From an uncultured Candidatus Rokubacteria bacterium (lineage in GTDB: Bacteria > Methylomirabilota > Methylomirabilia > Rokubacteriales > DASRDR01), in NCBI GenBank assembly GCA_963826115.1, contig CAWGVS010000005.1, positions 704,001 through 768,000 on the forward strand: a stretch of 64,000 nucleotides of DNA. Direction: 5' to 3'. The translations under genes were made by a program, and so were the position numbers. Of this stretch, positions 42,463-62,774 are shown piece after piece. The number at the start of each line of letters is the position of its first letter. Position 1 is the stretch's first letter. A model generated the notes under the pieces. The model ran no database searches. It was given only the letters and a program-made list of their open reading frames with translations, and had not been told where the DNA came from.

Positions 42463-42539
<77 letters not shown>

Positions 42540-44148: not shown

Positions 44149-44225
44149 CGGGGCGTAGCGCAGCTTGGTAGCGCGCCTGCTTCGGGAGCAGGAGGTCGCT
44201 GGTTCAAGTCCAGTCGCCCCGACCA
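44149..44225 (+). tRNA. tRNA-Pro(CGG)
   Basis: CGGGGCG acceptor, CCTGC-TTCGGGA-GCAGG anticodon arm, GGTTCAAGTCC, CCA. Confidence 0.96.
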
Positions 44226-47827: not shown

Positions 47828-47904
47828 GCCCCCGTAGCTCAGTTGGATAGAGCAAGGGTTTCCTAAACCCTGGGCCGGGTGTTCGATTCACCCCGGGGGC
47901 ACCA
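47828..47904 (+). tRNA. tRNA-Arg(CCT), island integration site
   Basis: GCCCCCG acceptor, AGGGT-TTCCTAA-ACCCT anticodon arm, GTTCGATTC, CCA. Confidence 0.96.
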
Positions 47905-49555
47905 ACTCCGCTACAGCACCCTCGAGCAGCGGGTCCACCGTCACCGTCCCGGTGATTTCGTAGCAGCGACCCTCCGGGGTCTCCCGTGGCGTCAGCGTCA
48001 ACCGGCCCGGCAACAGGCGCCGCAGAATGGGTCGGGCCTCGCTGGGCTCACCGCGCAGCAAGGTGGCCCACTCAGCCAACACCGCGCGCACCATCGCCTT
48101 CAGGGCCGGGGTGACCGTGGGCCGGGTTGACCGACGTCGCGCCTCGACGTTCTGTAGCTGGGCCGCCAGGGTGGCCCGGTGCTGCTCCTGCTCGCGCATC
48201 TTCTCCATCAGGCGCGCCGGGGGCTTGCCATCGGCGATGGCCGACACGAAGTTGTCGAGGATCCGGTCCACTCGCTTCATGTCGCGCTCCAGACGCTGGC
48301 ACTGGGCGTCGAGCGTGGCGTACTGCGCCGCGGCCTCCGCCACGGCCTGCGCCAGCACGTCCTCCAGCAAGGTGGTCGTCAGCACCTCCTCGTCCAACAC
48401 CGCCAGCATCGCCGCGTCCAGGTCGGGCAGGGGCAGGGACCAGCCGTTCGTACAGGTGCCATCGACGCGCCAGCCGTTGCAGACGTAGTAGACGCGCGGG
48501 GTGCCGCGTCGGCTCGTCCGCTTGATTGCATGCATCGCCCCGCCACACGTTCCACAGCGGACCAGGCCTCCGAACAGGTGGCGCGACTCCAGCGCCGGGT
48601 CGGGGCGCGCCCCCGTCTCCCGATGATTGCCGACGCCCCCGGTGTACGTCTGCCGGGTGCGTGCCAGGCGAGCATGGGCGGCGGTCCACAGGGTCTCGGG
48701 GATGATCCGGCACTCGGGCACCTTGACGTCGATCCAGTCGTCGGCAGGGACGGCTTCCTTGACCTTGGTGCCGCCGCGGTCCACCCAGCGTGTCTTGCCG
48801 TAGATCGACCGGCCTCGGTACAGGTCGCGGAAGGCCATCTCCCACAGGCACGTCTTCGCCCACCCTCGGCCCGGTCGTGGCCCCGGCACCCCCTCGGCAT
48901 TGAGCCCGCGGGCGATGCGCGCGTAGCCGCGGCCCTGGGCGATCTCCGTGAACACGCGGGTGACCACGGCGGCCTGGGTCGGGTCGATCACCCGCACCAC
49001 ATGGCCCTCGCGCCGCACGTTGGTGTACCCGTAGACCTTGCCGCCGGCCACGTGGCCGGCGCGTGCCTTGCCCCGCCCGACATCGCGCGCACGCTGCTGG
49101 TCCTGCTGTCGGTGCATCTCATCCACCATCGCCATCGTGGACACTAGGTACCGGTCCAGGAGGGTGTCGCGCTTCACCTCGCTGTCGGTGAGGTAGCAGT
49201 AGATGCGCACCCCGGCGTCGGTGATGCGTTTGAGCGCCACGGGGACCTCCTCCAGCGAGCGTCCCAGCCGGCTTTGCTCCATGGTGACCACCACCTGGAA
49301 TGAGGGCCGGGGTTTCAGGGCGTTCATCAGCCGCAGGAACCCTGGCCGCTTCACGAACTCGGCCCCGCTGATGCCGTCGTCGATGTACACGTGCGCGGGG
49401 TCCACCGTCCAGCCCTTGCGTGTCGCGTAGGCGGTGGCGTGCTCGACCTGGCGGGTGACGCTCTTGGCCTCGTCGGCCACCCCGCCTTGCTCGGTGCTCT
49501 TGCGAGCGTAGATGGCTGCGGTCAGGTGGGGGGGTGCTACACTGGGCCTGCTCAT
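47888..49555 (-). CDS. Large serine recombinase (integrase), integrated form ending within the tRNA antisense
   Basis: AIYARKS catalytic motif, DDGISG, SRLGR, YGY recombinase domain, CGTCG..YYVC..C zinc ribbon, coiled coil; GGAGG RBS before ATG 49555. Confidence 0.95.
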   Translation of the reverse strand: MSRPSVAPPHLTAAIYARKSTEQGGVADEAKSVTRQVEHATAYATRKGWTVDPAHVYIDDGISGAEFVKRPGFLRLMNALKPRPSFQVVVTMEQSRLGRSLEEVPVALKRITDAGVRIYCYLTDSEVKRDTLLDRYLVSTMAMVDEMHRQQDQQRARDVGRGKARAGHVAGGKVYGYTNVRREGHVVRVIDPTQAAVVTRVFTEIAQGRGYARIARGLNAEGVPGPRPGRGWAKTCLWEMAFRDLYRGRSIYGKTRWVDRGGTKVKEAVPADDWIDVKVPECRIIPETLWTAAHARLARTRQTYTGGVGNHRETGARPDPALESRHLFGGLVRCGTCGGAMHAIKRTSRRGTPRVYYVCNGWRVDGTCTNGWSLPLPDLDAAMLAVLDEEVLTTTLLEDVLAQAVAEAAAQYATLDAQCQRLERDMKRVDRILDNFVSAIADGKPPARLMEKMREQEQHRATLAAQLQNVEARRRSTRPTVTPALKAMVRAVLAEWATLLRGEPSEARPILRRLLPGRLTLTPRETPEGRCYEITGTVTVDPLLEGAVAELVPPG

Positions 49556-49663
49556 CACGGTCCTCCTCCAAAGGTCGGGCTTGATGGGCCAGCGCCCGGC
49601 GGTGTGCACCGCGCGGGCGCTACCTATTTACGGTCACGCAGCATACACGACCGTCCTGCCAGG

Positions 49664-51046
49664 CTACGCTCTCTTCGCCGACGCCCTCGGCCCCGGCCCC
49701 TCCGTGCGTGCCATGGTCGCGACGGGGGCGGGGATACCCGAGATCAACGCGAACCACGTCTCCCGCGAGACGACCACATCGGCGCGCAGCACGGCCCGAA
49801 TCCACAGTTGGTAGGCCGCGAATGCGCTACCGCTGCTGTCGGCCGCGTCCCGACTGATGGTCAGTTCCAGGGCCAGCCGCAGGCAGATGAACAGGTTCGC
49901 GAACGGCCCGAGGTAGGCTTCGCTTTCGTTTGTCCCGGCGCCGCCGGTGGCACTCACCTGCGTGGTGACGAACTTCTGGAGCCGGCCCCAAGACTCCGGG
50001 GGCCGCAGCGGCTGCTGGGTGCTGTCCTTCAGGCGATCCAGCGCCCCGGCATCCCGCGGGTGCAGAATCAACGACACGCCCTCCGCCGGCCCGTTGGCCG
50101 CCAGGATTCCTTCGTAGGCTTCGCTGATCGTGTCGTAGGTCAGCGCGCCGCCGGCCGGCATCGCGATGATGCCAGGCGTGAACTTGATGCCGCGCGGCTG
50201 GTCCTGGCCGGCGGCGGAGGGATCGCCCCGAAGGGCCGCGAGGTCGAGGCCGTTCGCGAGTTCCTCGCCGAAGACCTGCTCGATGACCGGCGGCGCGCTG
50301 GGCGAGCTGTCCCGGGCCAGCTCTTCGCTCATCTTCACCCAAATCATCTGCGTCCGCGCCTTCGCGGACACGCGATCCAGCACCACGTCGGTCGCCGGGG
50401 CGGCGACATTCTCCGGCTTCCAGAGCGGCGGCCCGGCCGACACGACTCGGGCGAAGTGTAGTTCCTGCGTGTCCATCGGAATCGTGCGAGCCCCGGCCCG
50501 AAAGACGGTACTGGCGGCGCGCGCGCGGTCCAACACATCGAGGGCTATCGCCTCCGGGACGAGATAGCCGCCACTGGCGCCGGGGCTGGTGGCCATCACG
50601 CGCTGTTCGGCCTGGGCGTCGCGCCAGTCCCCGGTGATGATCGCCCGCAGGGCGCGACCGAACGAGAGGTCGCCCGGCCGGATACCATCCGGCAACCGCA
50701 CCGGCACGTGGCTGCGCAGCGACTCGGATGGCGTCAGCGCCAGCACAGACCCTCGGTCGCTGATCGCCGCGTCCTCCTGCCGGCGAGCGGCCCGGGTCGG
50801 CAGCGGCTCGCTCAGTTCGCGCTCCACCGCGTCGAGGTTCTCGCGGCCGGCGATGTACGACCGCCGCGGGGCGTGGTCGGGGTCGAGGGCGGCGATCTGC
50901 TCGGCCGCGCGGCCCTGCACCAAGTCGAGGCGATCCCACTCGGCCGACTCCGTGTCGGTCATCGCGCGGCCCTCGGTGCTGGCCACCAGGGCGCGCATGG
51001 ACTGGACGATTTCTCCCCGCTTCTGCCGTAATTCCGTGAGGGTCAT
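49664..51046 (-). CDS. HK97-fold phage major capsid protein with N-terminal delta domain
   Basis: LTELRQKR coiled-coil start, SGGYLVPE, W.PEN, KMSEEL.RDS, D.AAL.GD..QPRGI, LKDSTQQPL. Confidence 0.9.
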   Translation of the reverse strand: MTLTELRQKRGEIVQSMRALVASTEGRAMTDTESAEWDRLDLVQGRAAEQIAALDPDHAPRRSYIAGRENLDAVERELSEPLPTRAARRQEDAAISDRGSVLALTPSESLRSHVPVRLPDGIRPGDLSFGRALRAIITGDWRDAQAEQRVMATSPGASGGYLVPEAIALDVLDRARAASTVFRAGARTIPMDTQELHFARVVSAGPPLWKPENVAAPATDVVLDRVSAKARTQMIWVKMSEELARDSSPSAPPVIEQVFGEELANGLDLAALRGDPSAAGQDQPRGIKFTPGIIAMPAGGALTYDTISEAYEGILAANGPAEGVSLILHPRDAGALDRLKDSTQQPLRPPESWGRLQKFVTTQVSATGGAGTNESEAYLGPFANLFICLRLALELTISRDAADSSGSAFAAYQLWIRAVLRADVVVSRETWFALISGIPAPVATMARTEGPGPRASAKRA

Positions 51047-51323
51047 CGGGCACGCTCCCCTACTGCGGGCCTCGGGAGCGGGTGGGAGGGCGTGGCGGAG
51101 GCCCAATCGTGGCCACGCGTCCACCCGCCCCCGAAGCACGCATGCTCGGACGGTGATGGTCGCGCGCCTGATCGCCTGAGCCACAGCCGGCGGGCCAGCG
51201 CAGCGCCGGTCGCGCCCGGTGCCCCACAGGGCCGCGCGCGCCGGTGGCCGGTTCAGTTGTGGGCGCATCATATGGCAGAGCGGGGCTGAGAAGGCAAATC
51301 CCCCTGGTGATACCCTGGTGCCC

Positions 51324-52082
51324 GTGTCTCCGCGGGTCGAAGTCCTTCCCATCCGCCTGATGCTGCCGGGAGCCTTGCCCGAGAGCGACGTTCGCACGGT
51401 CCCGCTCCTGCGGCTCATGGCGGCCACGAACGACACCCGCCTGATGGAGCGGCTGTTCTTGGTGACCCGCCGGCCCGAGAATCACATCGAGAGGCTCGTA
51501 TGCCTCGCAGAGGCGGGCTACTACGGTCGCATGTTCCTGGCGCACCTCTACGAAAGCGGAGAGGCGCTCGGAGCCTTGGACCATGTGGCCCACGCCTGGG
51601 TGACGAACACCGCCGCCAGCTCGGCTGAAGCCCAGGCGGCACTGACCAGCTTGCGGGAGGCCTTTGCGGGTGAACCCACGGCGGGCTTCTACGGGTTCTT
51701 GGCGTGGATGCGCACGAAGGCCGCGTTCCACTACAAGGACGCCTCGTTCCGGGACGCACTGAAGACCACCGGGAGGCAATCGGGCCACGTCATCCTCGGT
51801 AGGTATGCCGGAGCGAGTCGGTACATCGTCGTGGACGTCCTGATGGATGAGGTCCTCAAGAAGGCGGGGAAGGAGATGATGGTGGACTACGACGCGGCCC
51901 TTGGTCGCGCGGTCGAACTGGGGAACGCCCTGGAGCGGCTCGTCGCCCATCTCCTCACCCACTACCTGCAGGAGCGCCCTGCCACGTGGCGCGAGGAACC
52001 GTGGGAGACGGTGCACTGGCCCGCAGCCCTGAGGAAGCGGACGAAACAAAGCGAGACAGACGAAGGGCCGCCGGCATGCTAG
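51324..52082 (+). CDS. Accessory protein with HEPN-like RxxxxxH motif
   Basis: Long ORF opposite to the element operon; WMRTKAAFHY at about 51705-51734; start uncertain (possible leaderless GTG after TGaTACCCT). Confidence 0.65.
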   Translation: MSPRVEVLPIRLMLPGALPESDVRTVPLLRLMAATNDTRLMERLFLVTRRPENHIERLVCLAEAGYYGRMFLAHLYESGEALGALDHVAHAWVTNTAASSAEAQAALTSLREAFAGEPTAGFYGFLAWMRTKAAFHYKDASFRDALKTTGRQSGHVILGRYAGASRYIVVDVLMDEVLKKAGKEMMVDYDAALGRAVELGNALERLVAHLLTHYLQERPATWREEPWETVHWPAALRKRTKQSETDEGPPAC

Positions 52083-52456
52083 GCCTGGCCCTCCTGATTC
52101 GTTTCGGCCGCCGCGGTGATCTCGGCCCAGGGCACCGCGAGTAGTTCCGTCAGTTGCACGTCCCGGCCTTCGGCATCCACGGGAAACAGCATGACCCGGT
52201 CGAATCCCAGCAGTCCCGCACAGGCGGCATTGAAGCGCGTGGACTCCTGGAAGAAGCGCCGGATGGTGGCCCAGCGTTCCCGTTCCGCGTCATCCGTGGC
52301 CCGCCGCTCGTTGAGCCAGTGCCGCGCATCCCGGTCGAATCCGTAGGCCAGCGCCCCCAGCACGTTCAGCGGCTGGCCCTGCAGCAGCCGCACCGTCTGC
52401 AGGTGGGCCAAGGCCACCGCGGTGCCGGGTGTCATCGGTCCGGGGTCGGTTGTCAT
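52079..52456 (-). CDS. Hypothetical protein (125 aa)
   Basis: ATGA overlap with terS, GGAGG RBS. Confidence 0.7.
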   Translation of the reverse strand: MTTDPGPMTPGTAVALAHLQTVRLLQGQPLNVLGALAYGFDRDARHWLNERRATDDAERERWATIRRFFQESTRFNAACAGLLGFDRVMLFPVDAEGRDVQLTELLAVPWAEITAAAETNQEGQA

Positions 52457-52926
52457 GGGCGGCCCCCCTCCTGCGCCCGCAGCAGTGACTCCATGGCGTC
52501 CGGCGGGGCCGCGGGCGTTAACGGTTCCACCGTGCCGCGGGCTGCCGGTGCCAGCCCCAGCGCGCGCAATGCGAGCAGACAACGGCGCCACGCATCGGCC
52601 ATCAGCGCGCACTCGGGCCGTACCCGGATGAGTCCGTTGTGGGCGTACGACTCTCCGTGCTCACGGAGGAACGCGCGGTGCCGATCGAAGTCGGCCCGTG
52701 CACTGGCCGCCAGCAGGATCGCGGCGCCGTCTCCCCGCGTGGCGAGCCGCTGCGCGTCCATCTCGGCCGCCAGGGCGTCGTAGTGGGCGCGCACGTCAGC
52801 ATCGAGCCCCAGCGGGGCCGGCGGCGCTCCCACGTCCGCGGGTTTCATCTCCAGCGCCGGCCGCTCGCGGTCGGGGCGCAGCGTGCCGCGGCGGGCCTTC
52901 GATTCACGGCGACGGCGAGGAGGCAT
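52453..52926 (-). CDS. Phage terminase small subunit, P27 family
   Basis: RGTLRPDR, PPAPLGL, G....RP...M.DAWRR, LGLAPAAR. Confidence 0.85.
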   Translation of the reverse strand: MPPRRRRESKARRGTLRPDRERPALEMKPADVGAPPAPLGLDADVRAHYDALAAEMDAQRLATRGDGAAILLAASARADFDRHRAFLREHGESYAHNGLIRVRPECALMADAWRRCLLALRALGLAPAARGTVEPLTPAAPPDAMESLLRAQEGGRP

Positions 52927-52949
52927 CAGTCAGACCACCGGGTGCCCAG

Positions 52950-53045
52950 GAATCTCGGCGCGCGTGGCCATCGGACCGTCGTGCCTGCGCAGGCGGGTAG
53001 GGACCACTCAGGCGCTAGCTTTTTGCCCCGCCCTCCCCCGCGCGA
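52950..53045 (-). other. Candidate cos/packaging site
   Basis: Non-coding gap upstream of terS reading GGGGGAGGGCGGGGCAAAAAG..ACCCGCC..GCGCGCCGAGATT on the minus strand. Confidence 0.5.
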
Positions 53046-53153
53046 ATCCGACGCACAGGCCACAAGGTGGCCCGCCGTCCCCACGCCCAGCCCTTGGCCT
53101 ATGTGCACGTAGCTCCCCCCTCCACCCCCGTGGGGCTCAGGGCAACGTCGGGG

Positions 53154-53390
53154 TCATGCATGGAGCGGGCAGGCGCACCGCGCGGGGTGCGGGGGCATCG
53201 GAGCCGTCGGGCAGTTCCCGCAATCGCAGCCCGCCCGGTGGGGCTGGTTGAGCCGCAGGAGTCGCATCCCGAACACGCGCTTCCGCATCCGGCGAAACCG
53301 CGGCGGGGGCTTCTGCTCTTTCTGTGCGGCTGCGACGGCGCGGTAGGCGTCCTTCGGGGTGGTGCTGTCGTCGTTCGTCCTGTCCGTCAT
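53154..53390 (-). CDS. Small basic Cys/His-rich protein (78 aa)
   Basis: AGGGAG RBS; ends HRAGCDCGNCPTAPMPPHPARCACPLHA. Confidence 0.55.
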   Translation of the reverse strand: MTDRTNDDSTTPKDAYRAVAAAQKEQKPPPRFRRMRKRVFGMRLLRLNQPHRAGCDCGNCPTAPMPPHPARCACPLHA

Positions 53391-53473
53391 GGTCGTGTCC
53401 TCCCTGCTGTTGGTGTGGGGCTGGGGCGCTCCATCAAAGAGGCCGATCTCCAGGTCGCTCCATCGCCGGCCCA

Positions 53474-53755
53474 TCATCGAAGCTCCTGCAGGTCGGGCGT
53501 GCGTGCTCGGTGCCGCCAGCGGTGCAGCAGCTTGCGCACGTTGGGCGGCACCGCGTACTCGGTCAGAGCCGCGCGCTCCAGCAACCCCGGCCAGTCCCGC
53601 GTGCGCACCTGCACCAGCACCACGTCGGTGGTGCCGATGCCGACGATGTCCCACTCGCCCAACGAGGCCGCACTGCGCGTGCAGCGGTAACCCGCGGCTT
53701 CCAGCAGGGCCATGGAGCGGTGCTCGTTCCGGGTGCCCTTCCGCTTCGCGTTCAC
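53474..53755 (-). CDS. Hjc-like PD-(D/E)XK Holliday-junction resolvase
   Basis: NAKRKGTRNE..LEAAGY...RSAAS..WDIVG..VLVQVR. Confidence 0.75.
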   Translation of the reverse strand: MNAKRKGTRNEHRSMALLEAAGYRCTRSAASLGEWDIVGIGTTDVVLVQVRTRDWPGLLERAALTEYAVPPNVRKLLHRWRHRARTPDLQELR

Positions 53756-54283
53756 TCCAGGGGCTCCAACGACGACGGCCGCTGCGGCAGGCGGGCACCG
53801 AGACGACGCGGGCCGGGGTCGGCGGCCGGTGCCGGCGGGGGTGAGGGCACGCTCGGCTGCGGGGCCGGCGCCAGGGCGCTCGCCCGGTGCAGAAACTCCG
53901 GGGGCAGGCCGCCCAGCCGGCGCAGCGCCTGGGTGTACACGGCCTGCACGACGGCCTCTTGCTGCTGGAGCCACTGAAGCTCCCGGCGGAACGGAGCCAG
54001 CCGATGGTCGCGGGTGCGGGCCGTCGTGGCCGTCGCGAGCGCCGTGCAGCCGGCTGACGACGGTCTCCGTGCAGCGTGGGCAGGCCAACGCGGTGCTCTG
54101 GTCCTCCGTGTTGAAGACTGCGAACGTGACGAGGAAGTGATCGAGCAGGACCCCACACCAGGCGCAGCGGGTCAGTCGGGGCACGAACCACGACAGACGG
54201 TCAATCGGTGGCGGCACCGGTCGCCGGCGGCGCGGCTTGCCCTTCTTCGTCGGCTGGGTCATGTCGTCGGGCTGGCCGCTCAT
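53752..54283 (-). CDS. Zn-finger hypothetical protein(s), frame ambiguous
   Basis: ATGA-coupled to rep; CAWC..CPRC; a second coding-like frame ends at 53752 with GTGA overlap onto the Hjc start. Confidence 0.5.
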
Positions 54284-55266
54284 GCGGCCTCCGCCCCGAC
54301 GTTGCCCGCGCCCCAGCCATACCGAACCAGATCGCCCCAGCGGCGCGGTCGGCCCGTCACGCTGGGGTCGTCGTCGGGGTCGGCCACCTCCAGGTCGTCT
54401 CCTGGTGGCGGGGCCGGTGCCTGCGCCCCGCCGTCGTCGCCGGTCGGGTGATCGTCGTTCTCGGTGTGCATCCGTGCCTCCGGTTCTCGCCCGTAGGTTG
54501 CGCAGCGCGCCAGCGTGGCCATGAATCCATCGTCGCGGTCCAGGATCGGTCCGATCCGCTCCGGTCCGGTTTCGATCCGGCCCCTTGAGGCTGAAAGCCC
54601 ATCCGAACCCCCCCGTGCGTCGGGGGGGTAGGGGGGGTTCTTTCGAACCCTTTCTGTCGGAGTCTGAGAAGAAGTCGGCGGGACCATCGGCGCTCGCGTG
54701 TCTGGGACCATCGGCGCTCGCGCAACACCCGGCGCGGAATCGGTAGACCTGGAGCGGCGATTCCTGGGCGATACCATCGGCGCTCGCGGGTCGTCTACCA
54801 TCGGCGCTACCATCGGCGCTGACCCCCCTAGCATCGGCGCTCCGCTGGGCTGCACCATCGGCGCTGGCGCCAGGCCGTCACTCCGTGATGGCACGTCTTC
54901 GTGCGGGGTTGCGGTGCCACGGACCATCGGCGGTGACGCGCCGTGTACCATCGGCGCTTCCAGGCCCATGGCCCCCGGCAGGATGCGGATGGTGGTGAAG
55001 CCGGCGCTGCCCTCGTCGGGGTACCGCACAGCCTCCGTGGCGATCCAGCCGCGGGTCCGCAAGGTCTGAAGGAACCGACTCACGGCACGCGGGCTCCACC
55101 CCCAGCGCCGGGCGAGTTCGACCTGGGACGTGTCGAGCACCAGCGCGCCTGTGTGCCAGTGTGCGGAGAGCAACAGGTACAGCCAGGCGTCCAGGCGGTT
55201 GATGCGTCCCGTTGGCCAGAGCGGATCATCCAGGAGCGAACGCGGCAGCTTCACCCAGCCGGTCAT
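54280..55266 (-). CDS. Phage replication initiator (replisome-organiser type wHTH)
   Basis: GWVKLPRS..W..RLDAWLYLLL..LARRWGWS..V.RFL; KNPPYPP motif; internal iterons. Confidence 0.85.
   Translation of the reverse strand: MTGWVKLPRSLLDDPLWPTGRINRLDAWLYLLLSAHWHTGALVLDTSQVELARRWGWSPRAVSRFLQTLRTRGWIATEAVRYPDEGSAGFTTIRILPGAMGLEAPMVHGASPPMVRGTATPHEDVPSRSDGLAPAPMVQPSGAPMLGGSAPMVAPMVDDPRAPMVSPRNRRSRSTDSAPGVARAPMVPDTRAPMVPPTSSQTPTERVRKNPPYPPDARGGSDGLSASRGRIETGPERIGPILDRDDGFMATLARCATYGREPEARMHTENDDHPTGDDGGAQAPAPPPGDDLEVADPDDDPSVTGRPRRWGDLVRYGWGAGNVGAEAA
54683..54958. repeat. Iteron array (putative ori) within rep
   Basis: ACCATCGGCGCT perfect at 54683, 54707, 54773, 54797, 54809, 54854, 54947; one-mismatch copies at 54830, 54923. 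Confidence 0.85.
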
Positions 55267-55469
55267 TCCCTCGTCTCCGGCCGAGTGCCCGGCTGGTCCG
55301 ACTCCGCGGCCAGCCGACGCTCGGCCTCGCGCAGGATCATCCTCGCCAGCAGGCCCACCAGGTCCTCGTACTCGACCGACCCGCGGGTCGGCACGCGGAA
55401 GAGCCGTGCACCGGCGACCGGCCGCGCCTGGTGGATCACGCGGGCGGGGCGGGGGCGCGCTGTCCTCAT
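55263..55469 (-). CDS. Small hypothetical protein (68 aa)
   Basis: ATGA overlaps with both the HTH and rep genes; amphipathic helix LVGLLARMILREAERR. Confidence 0.7.
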   Translation of the reverse strand: MRTARPRPARVIHQARPVAGARLFRVPTRGSVEYEDLVGLLARMILREAERRLAAESDQPGTRPETRE

Positions 55470-55687
55470 GGCTGGCCGTTGCGGGCGAGAGGCGGGTCGA
55501 ACAGGTTGCCCAGCGGGACGCGGAGGGAGCGAGCAAGGCGCACCTTGGTCTGCCAGGACGGCACGGACAGACCTCGTTCCGCGCGCGAGATGGTGCCGAT
55601 GTCGAGGCCGGTCAGGTGGGAGAGGTCGCGCAGCGTGAGGCCACGCTCCTTCCGCCAGCGCCGCAGAGGATGCGGGTGCGCGCCCAT
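55466..55687 (-). CDS. XRE/Cro-like HTH regulator
   Basis: LRRWRKERGLTLRDLS.LTGL...TISRAERG. Confidence 0.9.
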   Translation of the reverse strand: MGAHPHPLRRWRKERGLTLRDLSHLTGLDIGTISRAERGLSVPSWQTKVRLARSLRVPLGNLFDPPLARNGQP

Positions 55688-55892
55688 GGGTCCACCACGC
55701 GGTCACAAGGTGGCTGGCGAGCGCGAAGCGGCACCGCCATGGTGCTGAACCGCTCGCCGGACCGGCACCCGCTCGTTGTGTGGGCGCGCGCGCAGGTGCT
55801 CGCTGAGAGCACCGCCGATCCGCGATGTGGGTGGGGACGCGGGGTGGTGCTCTCAGCCGTATCATCTACACCGGCCCCATGGGCAGCGCAAC

Positions 55893-55920
55893 AAAAAAAC
55901 GCTTGGCTCGGGTCGCCGCG
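55893..55920 (-). terminator. Putative intrinsic terminator after the inner integrase tail
   Basis: CGCGGC-GACCCGA-GCCAAGCG followed by T7 on the minus strand, immediately after TGA 55921-55923. Confidence 0.5.
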
Positions 55921-55995
55921 TCAGGCGGCGCGACGAAGGGTGACGATTGTCCGGATCGGCCAGGCGTAGCGCGGGCCGGACCCCGCCGGGGGCAC
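55921..55995 (-). other. attP half-site encoding integrase C-terminal tail (inner copy)
   Basis: Reads VPPAGSGPRYAWPIRTIVTLRRAA* in the integrase frame across the core. Confidence 0.8.
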
Positions 55996-56045
55996 ACCCT
56001 TACACCTGGTGCGCGGTGCTATCCAGAATTCGCGCGGGCGCCCGC

Positions 56046-56372
56046 TTACTTGAGCATGCGAATCATCAACGCGACGACTAGTAGACTGGAGATCGGAACG
56101 GTCAGGACCAACCAGGTTAGGACATGGAGTTGCCGGCGAAGTCTCAGCAGGGCAGTGTCACCGCGAAGGATCTCCGCCGATCGCTGCCGATAGAAGAAGA
56201 ACAGCTGTTCCGGATGGCGTATCCCCCAAAAGGCCTCGGGCATCACCTTCTCTGCAACGTTGGGGTACCGTCGCATGAACTGAAGCTGCAATCGGGCGCC
56301 CACGATGCCCATTGCAAGGAAGAGGATCCCGTTGCCGAGGAACAGAAGCACACCTACCAGCGGGCTGACCAC
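56046..56372 (-). CDS. Small two-TM membrane protein
   Basis: 108-aa ORF with hydrophobic N- and C-terminal helices; TAGAAT -10 at 56418-56423 (minus). Confidence 0.7.
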   Translation of the reverse strand: MVSPLVGVLLFLGNGILFLAMGIVGARLQLQFMRRYPNVAEKVMPEAFWGIRHPEQLFFFYRQRSAEILRGDTALLRLRRQLHVLTWLVLTVPISSLLVVALMIRMLK

Positions 56373-56428
56373 GACCCCACCCCCGCGCGACTCCTCAGGT
56401 TTGTGTCGGCGGCCGCTATTCTACGCTC

Positions 56429-56506
56429 CTACGCTGCGCGCCGGAGCGCGACGAGTCGCCGGATCGGTCGCGAGTAGCGTGGGCCGGACCCCGCCGGGGG
56501 CACCAA
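56429..56506 (-). other. attP half-site encoding integrase C-terminal tail (outer copy) / attR
   Basis: Reads LVPPAGSGPRYSRPIRRLVALRRAA*; 29/30 nt identical to 55966-55995 over 56474-56503. Confidence 0.8.
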
Positions 56507-56548
56507 TTAATCAAGTAGTTACGCGACACCATTTCTGAGACGAGCCGG

Positions 56549-56572
56549 TTTTGTGGCGATTTTTGTGGCGAT
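56549..56572. repeat. 12-bp tandem repeat, tyrosine-integrase arm-site-like
   Basis: TTTTGTGGCGAT x2, 42 nt after the att core. Confidence 0.6.
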
Positions 56573-56761
56573 CTTGAGTCGGAGGTCCTGAGACGGCCCC
56601 CAACATCCCAGGCGGCGGAAGGAACCGTTATCATCCCAGTCGTGGGCTAGGCGTCGGCTACCTACCGACGTTTAACGAGCAGAATCCTCGCCGCCCTGCC
56701 CGCGGAATGTCCCCCGAGGCGTTCCACCCGAGGAGAAGCGACACGTAGAGGAGGGCGATCA

Positions 56762-57187
56762 ATGCCGGCGAATCCGCTCATCGGGACGTGGCGGCTCGTG
56801 TCGTGGGAGCTGCGGGACGCGGATGGCCGTGTCACGTACCCCTGGGGTCGCGATCCAGTAGGGTTCATCACGTATACCGTGGACGGGCGCATGGCTGTGC
56901 AGTTTGGGCGTTCGGACCGCGCTCAGCTCTCCGTTGCCGATTGGCTGGCCGCATCTGACGCGGAGATCGTGGCGGCGGCCCGGGGCTACTTCGCATACTG
57001 CGGCACCTACGAGTGCCGAGACGACACGGTCGTGCACCGGCTGGACCTCTGCCTGATGCCCAACTGGATCGGCGGAGAGCAGGTGCGCCAGGTCGCGTTG
57101 AAGGGGGACACCGTCACTCTCTTCACGCCGCCCACCCAGCTCGGCGGCCAGCAACGGGCCAGCAGCCTCGTCTGGCGGCGAGTGTGA
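56762..57187 (+). CDS. Lipocalin-like domain protein
   Basis: LIGTWRLVSW, P.G.ITYT.DGRM, YFAYCGTY, PNWIG.EQ.R, LVWRR. Confidence 0.88.
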   Translation: MPANPLIGTWRLVSWELRDADGRVTYPWGRDPVGFITYTVDGRMAVQFGRSDRAQLSVADWLAASDAEIVAAARGYFAYCGTYECRDDTVVHRLDLCLMPNWIGGEQVRQVALKGDTVTLFTPPTQLGGQQRASSLVWRRV

Positions 57188-57221
57188 AGCCAACCCCGTA
57201 AGCGACAGGCTCGTGGGCTAG

Positions 57222-57252
57222 TGAACCGCCCCGGGAAACCCGGGGCGGTTCA
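57222..57252. repeat. Perfect 14-bp palindrome resembling fused IS3-family ends
   Basis: TGAACCGCCCCGGG-AAA-CCCGGGGCGGTTCA. Confidence 0.75.
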
Positions 57253-57416
57253 GTCGCACGGTGCGAGCTTGGGCGCTTCCGTTCTTCGCTACGCGTCCTG
57301 GCCATCGCTTTTCAAGGCCATGAAAGTGTGGGAGGGGTTATGTACCATCTGAACGACTCGACCCACACGGAGGTCGATCCAAGCGCGGCAGTTCAATGCT
57401 CACCAGGAGGCGGGAC

Positions 57417-57914
57417 GTGACAACACACACCGCGGAGAACCCCGGCGAGGCGCAAGCCAAGCGTCTTGAGCATGTCTACGAGGAGGTGGCCAAGCTGCTG
57501 CGAGACCCCAAGGTGGCCTCGCGTCTGCGCACGGCGCCGGGTGAAAATGAGTGGTCAGCGATGCAGACGCTGGGACACATGACGGAGCTGATCCCGTACT
57601 GGTTGCATCACTGTCGCGCCCTGATCGCCGCGACGGGAGCCCCGCCCACGTTCGGACGCACGCCCGGCTCGCCTGAGCGACTCGCTGGGGTCGCGTACGG
57701 GGCTGCCGCTCAACCCGACGTGCTGTTGTCCCAGCTAGAGAAGGAAGTTCGGGCAGCAGCCGGCACGATCCGGAACCTGTCCACAGCCGAGCGCGGTAAG
57801 CGGGGTATTGACCACGAGAGGGGCGAGGTGACCGTCGCCGACGTCCTCGAGAGGTTCATTGTCAGCCACGCCGAAGGGCACTTGGCACAGGCACAGGCCG
57901 CGCTTCGGGGTTAG
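57417..57914 (+). CDS. DinB-family protein
   Basis: GGAGG RBS; EWSAMQTLGH..YW, HAEGHLAQ. Confidence 0.85.
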   Translation: MTTHTAENPGEAQAKRLEHVYEEVAKLLRDPKVASRLRTAPGENEWSAMQTLGHMTELIPYWLHHCRALIAATGAPPTFGRTPGSPERLAGVAYGAAAQPDVLLSQLEKEVRAAAGTIRNLSTAERGKRGIDHERGEVTVADVLERFIVSHAEGHLAQAQAALRG

Positions 57915-58071
57915 TCATCGGCCTCCGGCACCCGACGTGGTCTTCGCCCTTGACGTGGACTGGCGGCCCGCAGGCGCGACCCGACGGCTGGCCCGTGGGC
58001 AAGCGCGGCCTTTGATCTCAGTCCCGCCGCGCGATGATGAGCCAGCGAGGTAACTCGGCACCGCTGCGCAC

Positions 58072-58215
58072 TTACTCGATCACCTCATCCGCCCGTGCCA
58101 GCACCGCCGAGGGCAGGTCGGTCGGCTTGGCGCCTTTGAGGATCTTGTCCACGTAGGTGGCGACGCACCGAAACAAATCACCAAGGGCTGCACCGTGAGA
58201 GATGAGGCCCCCGGA
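58072..58215 (-). pseudogene. C-terminal relic of an ABC transporter substrate-binding protein (ABC_sub_bind type)
   Basis: [47 protein letters not shown], with the usual VEQPTKFELVINLKTAKALG segment missing. Confidence 0.75.
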
Positions 58216-59187
58216 TCAGCGGGTGGAAAACTCCTGCTGGATGCGAGCCACGTCGGTGATGTTGTTGGCCAGGAGCAGCTGGAGCAGCACGCGGGCCTTG
58301 GGCGGGTTGAGATCGAGCGCGGCCACGAAGCCCAGTTGGTCGTCGTTGAGCTCCGCGTTGCGGAGTGTGAAGCCCGAGCCGACTCGGCTGGAGCGGACCA
58401 CGATGACCCCCTGTTTCGCGGCGGCGGACAGCGCGTCGACGACCGCCTTGGACGAGTTGCCGTCGCCGACGCCGGCGAGGACGATACCCTTGGCGCCGCG
58501 CTTCACTGCGTCGGACACCTCATCGGCCATCATGTGTGAGTGCGAGTAGATAATGTCCACGCGGGGGAGGGGAGCCTTGTCGGGCGCCTTGAAGCGAGGA
58601 CGCGGGTAGTTCACAAGGGGAGCGACAAACCGCACGGACGCGGCGTCGACGTAACCGGCCGGGCCGCTGTTCGGGGAAGCGAACGTCTGCAGGCTCGTGG
58701 TGTTGGTCTTGGTCGCGTCGCGTGACTCGTGGATCGTGTCGTTCAGGACGAGCAGCACGCCGCGCCCGCGCGCCTCCTCGGAGGCGGCGACCTTCACCGC
58801 GGCGTAGAGGTTGGCAGGGCCGTCGGCGCCGACGGCGGTGGATGGGCGCATGGACCCCACCAGCACCACCGGCTTGTCGCTGGCGACGACCTGCTCGAGG
58901 AAGAACGCCGTCTCCTCCATGGTGTCGGTGCCGTGCGTGACCACGACTCCGTCGGCATCTCCCGTGCTGAAGAGCTCGTTGATCCGCCTGGCCAGGGTGA
59001 CCCACACCTCGTCGTTCATGTCCTGGCTGCCGATATTGGAGATCTGGTCGGTGGTGAGCATCGCGAGCTTCTCGATGCCAGGGACGGCGTCGATGAGGTC
59101 TTTGGCGGATGCCTGGCCCGACGTGTAGCCCACCTCGGAGATGGTGTTGGCCTTGCCGGCGATCGTCCCGCCCGTGGCGAGGATGGT
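58216..59187 (-). pseudogene. Type II L-asparaginase, 5'-truncated
   Basis: TILATGGTIAG, HGTDTMEET, GSMRP, LNPPKAR; no in-frame start codon upstream of the ATGGTIAG motif before TGA at 59224-59226. Confidence 0.75.
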
Positions 59188-59541
59188 CCAAAGCCTGTTG
59201 CGTGCCCCCTCCCCAGGCTCGTGTCAGCTCAGCGGGCGGATTCCCAGGGTGGCCGGACTCTATCGCGCGGCGGGCCGGCCCGGCAAGGGCCAGAGCGGGC
59301 CGGGACAGCCTCGGGGAGACGTAGGTGAGAACCGGCTTCCAGGGGTCGACGGGCAGACTGGGATGGCGGCGGCTGGGACGTCGAGATCGACGGCGGGTCA
59401 CGGGGCGGTGAGTGAACAGTACGGCGACGGCTGGGCCGCCAGTCCGAGCGCGCCGACCAGATGCCGCACACGTGCGGTTCCGTCAGCGCCCCAGGGTCCG
59501 CCGCGGGCCGCCGCAGCGCGGACAGACCAATGCTCCGGTCT

Positions 59542-59619
59542 CTACGCCGCGCGAATCAGAAGCGTCCCGCCAAGGGGAACTGTGTCATACCGGGCAGTCT
59601 CCTTCGGGGCCACCAACTC
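59542..59619 (-). other. Degenerate tRNA-end copy with a third integrase-like tail
   Basis: CGGGGCCACCAACTC (14/15 match to 47894-47908); reads ELVAPKETARYDTVPLGGTLLIRAA*. Confidence 0.6.
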
Positions 59620-59862
59620 TTTCGAATACCTACCCGACCGAGTCCGCGACGATCCCGGCCGATTTGGACCGTTCTGACACTGAACCACTCGGATCTCTCC
59701 GACCAACCGGAGCCAAAAGTGGATCGACGTGTAGACCCCGGGACCACGGTATACTGGGGGCCTCGAATCACGCCCGGATCGGCCGCAAAGCGATTGAGCT
59801 TCTGCGGTACCCGCCTCCCCGTGCAACGAGCCACGCAGCCATCCCCCGGGTGAGGTGTCTTC

Positions 59863-60138
59863 ATGACGAACGTCGATCCCGAACTTGCTCGGCCGCGATT
59901 CACGCTCCACGGCCCGATCCGGATCCTGGACCTCCCGGAGCGGCGGCTGAGCCTCGGCGAACGTAATCTCTGGCTGGCGCCGGACGTCCCGACCGGCGAC
60001 CTCGAATTCGGCGCGGAGGTGGTGGCGAAGGGCTACAAGGAAGAGGATCGATGGATCGTGGATCTCATCACGATCACCAGCGTCGCGGCCTCGAGGCGCC
60101 GGCCGATCTCACTTCGAAGCTCGCGACCTCGTTACTAG
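59863..60138 (+). CDS. Hypothetical protein (91 aa)
   Basis: GAGG RBS, globular beta-rich composition. Confidence 0.55.
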   Translation: MTNVDPELARPRFTLHGPIRILDLPERRLSLGERNLWLAPDVPTGDLEFGAEVVAKGYKEEDRWIVDLITITSVAASRRRPISLRSSRPRY

Positions 60139-60596
60139 CCGTGAGGGAGCCGCATCCGGAAGCGGTCGTGGAAGGTCCGAGAGCCACATCCAGTAGAGGG
60201 CGGGTAGACCAGGACGCGCGGGGCGCGGCGTCGGAGAGCTCGGAGCCGGCCGGGGGCGGCCGAAGGGCGGGGACGAGATCAGTCGCGCGACGCGCCGACC
60301 ACGCTCTCGCCGTCGTGCGCGAGCAGGATTTCGCCGTTCGACAGGGCCGTGATCGTGAAGTCCTCCGCGTCGCTCCGCCGCTTCTTGTCGTCGCGGACGT
60401 CACACATCGCAGGAGGTTGGCAAGGGTCCACGGGCCCGCACCAGGTGGTGCCAGGCCTAGTGTCACTAGCGGTGTCAGTTCAGGAGTACACCTTACGTAC
60501 CGTTGACCTGTTACCGCCCGTCGGGCAGTATGGCCGCGTCCTTGCGATGCAGCTACCTACGTGTCAACCCGAACCGTCGAGAGAATGGAGTGTCCG

Positions 60597-60905
60597 ATGC
60601 GCTTTGTCATGAAAGTCAGCATTCCGGTCGAGAAGTTCAACGCTGCGGTCCGAGACGGGAGCGCAGGTAAGAAGCTCCAGCAGATCCTGGACGACACGAA
60701 GCCTGAGGCGGTGTACTTCTGGGAGGAAGACGGCAAGCGCGGAGGCATCATGGTCGTCAACCTCGAGAAGGCGTCCCAAATCCCAGCGTTTGCCGAGCCG
60801 TGGTTCCTGTCTTTCGATGCGAGTGTGGCGTTTCACCCTTGCATGACACCGCAGGATCTCGCTGCGGCGGGTCTGGACGCGCTGGGAAAGAAGTACGCCC
60901 GCTAG
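60597..60905 (+). CDS. Conserved hypothetical small protein (ferredoxin-like/DUF3303-like)
   Basis: KPEAVYF.E.DGKR, SQIPAFAEPWF..F.A.V.FHP.MTP.DL; GGAG RBS; TTGACC-N17-CAGTAT at 60503-60531. Confidence 0.8.
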   Translation: MRFVMKVSIPVEKFNAAVRDGSAGKKLQQILDDTKPEAVYFWEEDGKRGGIMVVNLEKASQIPAFAEPWFLSFDASVAFHPCMTPQDLAAAGLDALGKKYAR

Positions 60906-61265
60906 AAGGTTCGGTACCGAGATCGACACTCCGGCTTGACGTGGGTCGGGAGGTCGGAGGGGTGGAGCCCGGCCGGTGAGGCCGATGCCCAGCATTCGCG
61001 GGGCGACACCGGCGAGCTTCATCGCGCGTTGCTGTCGGAGGTGCGGAGGCGGCCGAGCCGGTAGGGCCGGATCCACGTTTCTCCGGTGTCGGAGCATTCG
61101 ATCCGCGGTCGCCACGTCTACACCGAGCTCTTGCGCGATCGTGGTGCAGGAATGCCCCCTCCCGCCTCGCGTCGCCAGCGCGTCGGTGACGTGCACCGGG
61201 CCGATTCTGGTCCTCTGGCGTCGCTTGGAGGGCACGAGTGGGCCGCGTTCGTGTTTCGATGCCGT

Positions 61266-61366
61266 GTGAACAAGCTCGAAGCCGGGAAGGAGGACCCTTC
61301 ATTGGCCACGATCAGTTCGCTCGCCAAAGCGCCCTCGGCCTGCCGGTGACGGCGCTGCTGGAGTAG
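61266..61366 (+). pseudogene. C-terminal half of an XRE HTH regulator, frameshifted
   Basis: VNKLEAGKEDPSLATISSLAKA/LGLPVTALLE* with 2 extra nt near 61332. Confidence 0.65.
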
Positions 61367-61369
61367 GAG

Positions 61370-61915
61370 ATGCCCAGTCGGCTCCTGGTCGAGCCCGAGC
61401 AAGAGCACGTCGAGCCGGAAAATGCCGTTGGAAGTTTCTCCCTGTTTCGGATCGCAGCGCGCGGGGGAGCATCGCGGCGGCGCGGTTTCGGCGTAGCTGC
61501 ACTTCTCTTCTTTCTGTTTGACGGGTGCGCCGCGTCGGGACCGAAGCTTAGTCCGGCGGACTACGCATTCCATAGCGTGGTGCTGCCAACGGCGGAATAC
61601 CCGGCGGTCTATCCATTGCCCAGCGTGGAGCCTCAAATCGAGCTCCACTGGCGGGTGATCGTGGATTCGAACCGTGTTCAAGCCGACGGATTGATGGAGC
61701 GGCAGCGTGAGTCCCACATCAAGGAGGCGTGGCTGCAGCTCGTCGGAATCGACGCGACGGGCCGGATCGTGAGCTTCACGCCGCCAACCCGGTTCTCCTG
61801 GCGATCTGCCAGCGCGCTCGAGTCGTTCATGATTGCGCTCGAGCCTCGGGGCGGCGAGAAGCGCTACGAAGTGCAGCTGTACATGTTCGAGTTTGAGCCG
61901 CAGTTGACGCATTAG
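61370..61915 (+). CDS. Hypothetical exported/lipoprotein-like protein
   Basis: Hydrophobic stretch ending FDGC, followed by a beta-rich domain; start uncertain. Confidence 0.6.
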   Translation: MPSRLLVEPEQEHVEPENAVGSFSLFRIAARGGASRRRGFGVAALLFFLFDGCAASGPKLSPADYAFHSVVLPTAEYPAVYPLPSVEPQIELHWRVIVDSNRVQADGLMERQRESHIKEAWLQLVGIDATGRIVSFTPPTRFSWRSASALESFMIALEPRGGEKRYEVQLYMFEFEPQLTH

Positions 61916-62042
61916 TCCGGCGGCCCGCGATGCTCTTGTCATGGCGTCGTGGAGCTTAGCCAGAGCGGTGATGCGGGCCACGCGGCCGTGGTGACTCAGG
62001 CGTCGTTCTGACTGGGGGCAAAGGCGCGGCTGGGCCGATGGC

Positions 62043-62124
62043 GACCTCGAGGCCGGTTCACGTACTCGCGGGTGATCTTTGCCCGTTTCGCCAGCTCGGC
62101 CTGGCCATATTCTTGGTCCCGCAG
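62043..62124 (-). pseudogene. N-terminal half of an XRE HTH regulator
   Basis: QAELAKRAKITREYVNR/LEV with a frameshift. Confidence 0.55.
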
Positions 62125-62200
62125 ATCAGATGATGTGGATGAGGGTGGCCGCCGTCGAGAGGACGAGATACAAGAAAGCCGCGGCGGATACCGATGAGAG

Positions 62201-62644
62201 CTAACTGGCGCATTTGAGTGTCCGTACTCGCGTCTGCATGTACTTCACGAACTCAGGCGAGTAGTCACCACAGTTGAAGACACCCTGTTCCAGATAGCCA
62301 CGGTGTTGGCGAAGTATTGAGGCGATGGCTCTCTCCCATCGCGGGTCATTGCCAACCAGGTCCCAAAGAGTCTCGGCAGTGAACAGCGCGTGCGTGGCAA
62401 ACCAGCCATATCGGGCATCCACGGGTTGGTCGTGGCTTCGGCTGGCCAAGTCAGGGTGCTCTACGGTCAGCTTGAGGTACTCCTGAAGAACGCCGAGGGC
62501 AGCAACTTGCCGTTGCTCGGCCGCGCTGCGCTGATACGTCAGCACCCCGAACACCACGGATACGGCGGTGACGACTGCGCCAAGAATCGTCGCTAAGTGC
62601 GCCGGGCGCTGCCATCTCAGTTCAGGTGTGGCAATCCTGTCCAC
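62201..62644 (-). CDS. Hypothetical protein with N-terminal TM helix
   Basis: 147-aa ORF, GGAGG RBS, visibly lower GC than the core genes. Confidence 0.7.
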   Translation of the reverse strand: MDRIATPELRWQRPAHLATILGAVVTAVSVVFGVLTYQRSAAEQRQVAALGVLQEYLKLTVEHPDLASRSHDQPVDARYGWFATHALFTAETLWDLVGNDPRWERAIASILRQHRGYLEQGVFNCGDYSPEFVKYMQTRVRTLKCAS

Positions 62645-62762
62645 CGGCGGCCTCCATCGCTATGCGCGGGCGGGACGGTCGGTGCAGCGGGGAGAGTAGC
62701 GCAGCGCCCGAGGGCCGAGGGCTGACCCGCAGTCGATTCGACGCCACGACACGTGAACTTCT

Positions 62763-62774
62763 CCGGGGGCACCA
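62763..62774 (+). repeat. Outermost copy of the tRNA-Arg 3' end (att scar)
   Basis: CCGGGGGCACCA identical to 47893-47904. Confidence 0.7.

Follow-up and report, generated by a model that had tools for sequence, protein, structure and literature searches.

A large serine recombinase gene that contains its own attachment site and may lose or regain a conserved C-terminal tail by recombination

We analysed a 64,000-nucleotide stretch of the genome of an uncultured Candidatus Rokubacteria bacterium (GenBank assembly GCA_963826115.1, contig CAWGVS010000005.1, positions 704,001 to 768,000; hereafter the window), in which a phage-satellite-like element of 8.1 kb (to 55995) or 8.6 kb (to 56503) is integrated at the 3′ end of a tRNA-Arg(CCT) gene. 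The integrase of this element is a large serine recombinase (LSR), and the phage attachment site (attP) lies within its reading frame, so that the free and integrated states of the element encode different C-termini; we are close to certain that this architecture is real. The favoured reading, to which we give a probability of roughly 0.5 with the architecture included, is that the tail encoded in the free state would serve a regulatory purpose, most likely as an ssrA/ClpXP-type proteolysis tag that ends in Ala-Ala and is removed by integration. This reading draws on the sequence and on analogy with known systems.

The open reading frame (ORF) at 47888-49609 on the minus strand is assigned to an LSR because Resolvase (PF00239, 1.3e-21), Recombinase (PF07508, 1.6e-16), and Zn_ribbon_recom (PF13408, 3.6e-13) domains are present. 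Although the frame stays open upstream to 49609, a GGAGGAGGA box just ahead of a GTG at 49557 and an ATG at 49554 agrees with a protein of 555 residues. In an alignment of homologues, the YARKST motif falls on near-invariant columns (A, Y, R, S), as expected of the catalytic serine region, and the alignment also contains invariant Cys columns, in keeping with an enzyme made up of recombinase, zinc-ribbon, and coiled-coil parts. Long paired helices are seen in the predicted models of two homologues, P0007 and P0039 (the models are of these homologues and not of the window protein). The best Foldseek matches of the P0007 model are the LSR-DNA complexes 9y66, 9dxh, 9rah, 4kis, and 9iu2; at the level of a predicted fold, these confirm the LSR family and are uninformative on the tail.

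The end of this gene coincides with the end of the tRNA. Its final codons, ..GAG TTG GTG CCC CCG GGG TGA, read the tRNA acceptor stem, CCA end, and T-arm in antisense. The last 12-17 bases of the tRNA-Arg(CCT) are involved, and the TGA at 47888-47890 lies inside the tRNA 3′ end. The resulting C-terminus, ..AVAELVPPG, aligns with those of homologues that also end in VPPG. The initial annotation of the window had described a 555-residue recombinase that crosses the attachment core into the tRNA-Arg antisense and stops there, and the ORF, the ARAGORN call, and the start box bear this out.

At the other end of the element, the 10-bp core recurs. There are four plus-strand copies of this 10-mer in the window (47893, 55986, 56494, and 62763) and none on the minus strand, against an expectation of 0.91, and none of 100 shuffled sequences reaches four. 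It had been proposed that joining the far end of the element at the core would give an in-frame tail of 21 residues; this holds, as the minus-strand reading from 55986 is AGSGPRYAWPIRTIVTLRRAA followed by a stop. All copies of the core are identical, which makes the frame of the tail independent of where in the core the crossover falls. The proposal had also placed a single right attachment site (attR) at 55995. A core and a tail are indeed found there, but a second tail arm with its own core, overlooked at first, lies at 56432-56503. The two tail-bearing sites, 55986 and 56494, are 508 bp apart and either yields an in-frame RRAA tail, so a single attR is an oversimplification. The tail exons A and B share a 71-bp homology that stops at the stop codon (TGA versus TAG), with 16 of 21 residues identical; in the last five codons (LRRAA), four of the five differ at third positions only. 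A further part of the earlier description, a hairpin with a run of seven T (55893-55920) acting as terminator directly after the tail, did not hold up: the T run exists, but a scan of 55700-56600 returned no terminator sites. The best hairpin was rejected as a candidate intrinsic terminator: the stop codon falls within it, the T run follows only after a gap of 12 nt, and its z-score is -0.77.

Could the 10-mer at 55986 be a chance match, with the element ending elsewhere and the tail never fused to the enzyme? Ten bases are short for DNA of 70% G+C, and the right arm of this copy is unlike any tRNA-downstream arm of relatives (5-11 of 36 identities). We nevertheless regard this explanation as highly improbable. 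Against it stand the excess of core copies over expectation, an exact 22-mer comprising the inner P arm (the tail-encoding half of attP) and the core that occurs exactly twice in the 6.2-Mb genome and sits within the homologous 71-bp arm, the homology of this arm to P arms in other genomes, and the change in gene content, with phage-type genes stopping at 55.9 kb and ordinary genes beginning at 56.7 kb.

The right arm at 56494 differs from that at 55986 in that it resembles tRNA-downstream sequence of relatives, and for this reason we read the core copy at 56494 as a possible outer attR. Specifically, it has 21 of 36 identities with the arm in genome G003 and has an AGTTA..CGAC motif in common with G012 and G011; the comparison was ungapped, the similarity is modest, some of the relatives' tRNA-adjacent arms are possibly island DNA, and the likeness to a bacterial B′ arm is what we infer from it. 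The 498-bp segment between the two sites (55996-56493) has a core at its left, a tail arm and core at its right, and one small ORF (P0013). We read this as a tandem arrangement: the segment may be cargo that the element has captured, or else a second element, miniature or remnant, that brought a P arm of its own; in its layout it resembles a miniature cassette that the integrase could move. The arm to the left of the fourth core does not encode a related tail. This core (62763-62772) matches 12 bases of the tRNA end, CCA included, and the 6.3 kb before it (56504-62772, with genes for a lipocalin-like protein, DinB, and asparaginase) may be another, integrase-less island of the same array. Within it, a 523-bp block (62188-62711) that holds a 147-aa ORF has a 90% identical counterpart in G003 (locus L058, G003:C8, 6662-7184), which lies in the opposite orientation relative to the cores, next to a remnant of an integrase end; an inversion, possibly integrase-mediated, or some other reshuffling of the array may lie behind this.

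Related tails are found in other genomes, in several arrangements. G039 belongs to the same order but to a different family; its LSR (44% identity) ends ..VVPPG inside a tRNA-Arg(CCT), and a core copy 17.4 kb from it, on the same strand, is followed by GWAARSRPVAFSATWRPAA and a stop, while the sequence preceding this core is closed by a stop. This is what an attR of such an element should look like, judging from its sequence. In G001, the C-terminal 200 residues of an LSR run unbroken through VPP into AGSVRSATATIHGRLQIRAA and a stop. In G003, 4.5 kb from the tRNA-Arg, a 92-bp remnant of an integrase end continues from VPP into EGSVRSATTTIQGRLQIRAA, encoded by a homologous arm; a 5-nt deletion upstream marks this remnant as a dead relic. 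The G001 and G003 remnants both end ..IRAA, and a pseudogene copy at locus L062 has the tail ERFAAFAQHPIDVLLVA. Contiguous tailed forms occur naturally alongside VPPG forms, and these include the predicted protein P0007, encoded on a 1708-bp contig, as well as loci L115 and L110. P0007 ends ..GLVPPGANERAYNIQVSVLVRAA, and its tailed end, ..VPPGANERAYNIQVSVLVRAA, is to be set against those of its relatives P0163-P0166, which stop at VPPG and are 66-79% identical to P0007 over the C-terminal stretch searched.

Metagenome loci add to this pattern. Among 66 loci, 57 have a C-terminal match; 26 of the 57 end in VPPG or APG, and 22 of these 26 do so inside a tRNA-Arg(CCT) called by ARAGORN. Seven loci read past VPP, into GFARSC (four), GNARQPHS (one), ARNAQRWNAPLTVTLHGRVT (L115), and a 44-residue tail (L110). 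Both L110 and L115 have arrays of extra cores between integrase and tRNA, each followed by a tail: GDPYPTHVPFEGLVRAA, ARHVEPWKTPLEVPFVGRVVVAAG, AGLVVGWRTPLAVPFVGRVVVAAG, and GWGVHSDRRRFTFRGTIGVTA. One check suggested in the initial annotation was whether homologous LSRs at tRNA 3′ ends have in-frame tails ending in AA. In-frame conserved tails are present, and 12 of 15 are 17-24 residues long, a length reached by 6.2% of random open continuations in this genome; the AA ending itself is found in seven of the 15 (2.1% of random open continuations). Because three pairs are close kin, the effective number of tails is nearer 12 than 15.

Several other features of these tRNA loci were observed. Repeats of 45-49 bp of the tRNA-Arg 3′ half are present at L061 (G014:C10), L135 (G010:C32), and L136 (G015:C60); these point to islands with a longer core, probably of the tyrosine-integrase kind, and hence to two kinds of element that compete for the tRNA. 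Genes for tRNA-Pro with anticodons GGG and CGG (42463-42539 and 44149-44225) lie a few kb upstream of the tRNA-Arg in the window, and the same tRNA-Pro/tRNA-Pro/tRNA-Arg trio, in the same order, adjoins an LSR in a Limnocylindria locus (L065). G008, a genome of the same genus, contains 28 matches to the window integrase, several of them full length, which is an unusually high load.

By examining the C-termini of the wider family, a pattern of two alternative endings emerges. An exhaustive search gave 150 representatives of 50% clusters, of which the 119 with at least 500 residues were used for endings. In 40 of the 119, the C-terminus is the antisense of a tRNA T-arm and acceptor stem (..SPTGFEPVFWP, ..CPRGDSNTRHAV, ..VPPG); 18 end in AA (for example ..RVLRLAA, ..RGLVRAA, ..YADLRAA, and ..GTTRRAA), and many AA-ended representatives depart from the tRNA-type end just past SPxG, which corresponds to VPPG in the window LSR. 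On a tree of 59 tips, built with the last 45 residues removed, AA and tRNA-type ends require 11 changes, against a mean of 15.7 and a minimum of 11 for shuffled ends (a nearest-neighbour listing on this tree was not used, being distorted by the partial sequence P0055). The two kinds of ending are thus intermingled among relatives, which is the distribution expected of one set of genes with two states. A two-state ending of this kind recurs across a large clade of LSRs with tRNA 3′ ends as their targets. Within the genus and the order of the window genome, related LSRs likewise read antisense into tRNA-Glu(CTC) (L030, L032, L033, and L034; G003, G012, G035, and G018). Other related LSRs (L101 and L065) enter tRNA-Leu(CAA), or enter tRNA-Arg(CCT) more deeply in another frame, and endings seen in these tRNA contexts are ..GFEPVFQP, ..GESNPH.., and ..GDSNTRHAV. 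The clade is known solely from genomes and metagenomes, mostly of soil, with records from Methylomirabilota/Rokubacteria, Limnocylindria, and Gemmatimonadales; a search for relatives in viral contigs found none, and isolated phages and plasmids gave matches of at most 32% identity.

One explanation for these tails is that they are neutral by-products: the tail would be an incidental translation of the P arm, conserved because the integrase recognises this DNA. LSRs bind about 25 bp in a P arm, and the first 8-10 tail codons would fall within such a stretch. The P and P′ arms of the window element, on either side of the 10-bp common core, share an inverted GTAGCG/CGCTAC, as read by eye, at a distance of 15-20 bp from the CC that forms the left edge of this core. 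In addition, some tails are short or long and not AA-ended, such as GFARSC, GNARQPHS, and the 44-residue tail, and in the tRNA-Glu subgroup the end ..GFEPVFQP occurs not only at an intact tRNA but also at one locus without an ARAGORN-called tRNA, L028. However, the tails extend 50-70 bp, far past a half-site, the position of the stop is conserved, endings and lengths are far from random, and AA ends recur across subfamilies that have different tRNA targets and unrelated arm sequences. We consider a neutral origin unlikely on these grounds, and the conservation of the architecture argues for a function.

We favour a proteolysis tag as that function. Family-wide, AA accounts for 18 of 79 non-tRNA ends versus 69 of 3118 (2.2%) coding-like host ORFs, a strong enrichment (binomial probability ~1e-13, overstated by kinship). 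The tag of the host transfer-messenger RNA (tmRNA) ends LALAA, the host has clpX (660 bits), the tail of P0039 is predicted to be disordered, and tagged Rep and Int proteins are a precedent from integration-dependent immunity; for these reasons a degron is the best reading of an Ala-Ala tail. The P′ arm encodes ..ELVPP, also the antisense of the tRNA acceptor stem, and the P arm encodes the conserved 21-residue tail ending RRAA. With attP inside the last codons of the LSR gene, integration swaps the tail for a single Gly with the TGA that the tRNA T-arm supplies, and excision, or the P arm of a tandem neighbour, restores it. On the degron reading, the tailed enzyme made from the free element would be short-lived, so that integration is limited or gated and re-integration after excision is prevented, whereas the prophage enzyme without a tag would persist and would be harmless absent a directionality factor. 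The idea put forward in the initial annotation, that recombination switches between a tail-less and a tailed enzyme, is thus upheld in its architecture, namely attP within the gene and a conserved tail in frame; a short life of the tailed form or a role in directionality would be consistent with the data.

Several observations weigh against a degron. AlphaFold models the tail of P0007 as a β-strand (326-333, predicted local distance difference test score (pLDDT) 81-90) that follows a hairpin (283-302). The residue before AA is mostly R and not L as in ssrA, and ClpX prefers an LAA ending. Eight of the 15 tails in the VPP subgroup are not AA-ended (VT, TA, VA, AAG, SC, HS, and one long tail). 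Family-wide, 61 of the 79 non-tRNA ends are not AA, and the binomial figures overstate significance because the sequences are relatives. An argument from synonymous and non-synonymous changes as proof of the coding strand was dropped: the tail frame and a plus-strand frame have their third positions in common, and a synonymous pattern would by itself fit either strand. Either 55986 or 56494 may be the site that is used. Finally, no attP or empty bacterial (attB) junction was found in the contigs of four sequencing runs (X1-X4), in which window DNA is present in pieces.

The missing excision junction is uninformative because the X1-X4 data are contigs. The search of the sequencing runs recovered small shares only (at most 8% of words), and in contigs of X1 both the left attachment (attL) junction, at 47864-48014, and the junction at 55986, covered from 55958 to 56108, are unbroken and 100% identical. 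Two low-depth contig joints from soil runs have a few extra letters and lie off the attachment sites, one from 49455 to 55785 (X3) and one from 54795 back to 49438 (X2). They connect the 5′ region of the integrase gene with the right part of the element; relatives with another gene order or a much smaller element may exist. No exact second core on the LSR strand was found within the flanks of 26 homologues that end in VPPG or APG (locus L060 of G039 and 25 metagenome loci). In six of these loci the element extends past the 8-10 kb of upstream flank, and most of the other contigs are too short for the search to be informative.

A different functional role would be structural. The tail could be a last β-strand that completes the C-terminal domain near the coiled-coil, or could contact a directionality factor, in which case the tailed episomal and truncated prophage enzymes would differ in activity or in preferred direction. 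This accounts for the strand in the P0007 model, and the tails have in common a motif in which hydrophobic residues alternate after an aromatic one (WNAPLTVTLHGR, WKTPLEVPFVGR, YAWPIRTIVTL, and YNIQVSVLV). The extreme C-terminus of phiC31 integrase (D590-592) is described as contacting the recombination directionality factor (10.1101/2025.05.02.651858). On the other hand, the tail of P0039, from another subfamily, is predicted to be disordered (pLDDT 33-37), P0007 is a fragment in which an exposed sheet edge may draw the tail artificially, and a structural role leaves the enrichment of AA unexplained. We see this role as possible but somewhat unlikely as the sole one; the degron and structural or directionality roles can coexist. 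More speculatively, recombination itself may set direction: the tailed enzyme would only integrate and be cleared fast, and the tail-less enzyme would be long-lived and excision-competent or more easily licensed. We hold this to be doubtful. If it is true, directionality would be partly encoded in the attachment site and not wholly in a separate directionality factor, and the same logic would hold throughout a large clade, so far undescribed, of serine integrases with tRNA 3′ ends as targets.

The remaining genes of the element, listed in Table 1, fit its description as a mobile unit. Because genes for a capsid protein, a small terminase subunit, and a DnaD-like protein occur within 8 kb, the element looks like a small phage satellite, possibly of the kind of phage-inducible chromosomal islands (PICIs) or capsid-forming PICIs, a label that we infer from gene content. 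Several further ORFs have no assignment, and among the 10 element ORFs scanned against Pfam and PHROG none matched large terminase, portal, or tail families. These scans also identified no repressor gene at attR; attP sits in the integrase gene instead. The phage-type genes end at 55.9 kb, and the genes from 56.7 kb on encode ordinary proteins (a lipocalin-like protein, a DinB-family protein, and asparaginase); G+C drops from about 0.71 to 0.63-0.68 where these genes begin, and it ranges over 0.60-0.69 in the 6.3 kb before the fourth core.

Table 1. Positions of the attachment cores, tail exons, and genes in the window (GC2 and GC3, G+C at second and third codon positions).
Feature	Position	Strand	Evidence or remark
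tRNA-Arg(CCT), intact, CCA present	47828-47904	+	ARAGORN
LSR gene, integrated form, 555 aa, end ..ELVPPG	47888-49554	-	Pfam, start-site features, homologue alignment
attL core CCGGGGGCAC, 10-mer, identity common to sites 55986, 56494, and 62763	47893-47902		Sequence match
HK97-type major capsid protein gene, start codon uncertain	49664-51436	-	PF05065 5e-22; phrog_10 4.6e-33; GC3 0.87
Function-unassigned ORF, sole clear plus-strand gene of the element	51219-52082	+	GC3 0.83; no Pfam or PHROG match
Small terminase subunit gene	52453-52926	-	PF05119 3.5e-10; phrog_83 2.3e-16
Winged-helix/DnaD-like putative replication initiator or regulator	54280-55536	-	HTH_Crp_2 4.5e-6; phrog_186 DnaD-like 6.8e-8; weak coding signal
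Tail exon A (P arm), 21 codons AGSGPRYAWPIRTIVTLRRAA and TGA, in frame with core VPP	55921-55986	-	Codons 55924-55986, TGA 55921-55923
Core copy 2 (attR of the initial annotation), right arm ACCCTTACACC..	55986-55995		5-11/36 identities with all other arms compared
Small ORF between the two tail-bearing sites, hydrophobic stretches, putative membrane protein (P0013)	56046-56372	-	Translation; GC2 0.40, GC3 0.73; no family match
Tail exon B, 21 codons AGSGPRYSRPIRRLVALRRAA and TAG	56429-56494	-	Homologous to exon A
Core copy 3, right arm CAATTAATCAAGTAGTTACGCGAC.., ordinary genes beyond	56494-56503		Probable outer attR

In its domain set and short core, the window LSR is like the integrases of phiC31, Bxb1, A118/LI, and SPbeta. 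Canonical serine integrases are described as having attP outside the gene and attB usually in protein-coding genes (PMC6109161), whereas the clade of the window reads into tRNA 3′ ends. The 2014 Islander paper states that no targeting of tRNA genes by serine integrases was known, and neither 'tRNA' nor 'C-terminal' appears in the main text of the largest LSR survey. The initial annotation knew of no such switch in a large serine recombinase; in agreement with this, a literature search of openly available main texts found no LSR with attP in its own gene or with a tag removed by integration, and a prior report is possible. The linker description in the phiC31 report gives the end of that integrase as VAA (10.1101/2025.05.02.651858); an Ala-Ala ending may thus extend beyond this clade among serine integrases.

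Attachment sites inside the genes that they alter are known from other recombination systems. In phage Mx8, as the Islander passage and the title of Tojo et al. (1996) have it, attP lies inside the integrase coding region and integration alters the C-terminus of the enzyme (IntP/IntX), as in the window element. The Mx8 Int is a tyrosine recombinase, unlike the serine recombinase of the window. Replacement of a segment of Int is reported to reduce its activity; we know of no Ala-Ala tail or family-wide pattern described for Mx8. In the SSV-type 'suicidal' integrases of archaea, the recombination site also lies within the integrase ORF (PMC7253208), but there the gene of a tyrosine integrase is cut into two large parts and inactivated, whereas in the window only the last 21 codons are exchanged and the catalytic and DNA-binding domains stay intact.

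A close parallel to the tail itself is integration-dependent immunity, known in the mycobacteriophages BPs, Brujita, and Charlie and in relatives in Gordonia, Bifidobacterium, and M. abscessus (PMC3694055, PMC6109161, PMC5559632, PMC9934374). In these systems, attP lies in the 3′ end of a gene and integration removes about 18 C-terminal residues with an ssrA-like AA tag, as we envisage for the window; Rep and Int are both C-terminally tagged (PMC3694055). In those phages, as described there, it is the repressor gene that is split and the tyrosine integrase keeps its own tag, whereas the window element splits its serine integrase and has no evident repressor. For M. abscessus, tandem integration-dependent prophages with tail remnants at attR are described (PMC9934374), in parallel with the two-site arrangement of the window.

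These comparisons have broader implications. Targeting of tRNA 3′ ends, stated in the 2014 survey to be unknown for serine integrases, characterises a sizeable clade of these enzymes. For inserting DNA in one direction, serine integrases rank among the foremost tools, yet their natural control is only partly understood; an attachment site inside the enzyme's own gene would be a new layer of that control, in which each recombination rewrites the C-terminus and removes or restores a conserved Ala-Ala tail. The hypothesis is open to ordinary laboratory assays, and the tail-swap design could be copied in synthetic circuits as a self-limiting integrase. The logic of the switch is that of Mx8 IntP/IntX and of integration-dependent immunity, but here the enzyme is a serine recombinase and the gene that is rewritten is that of the integrase itself.

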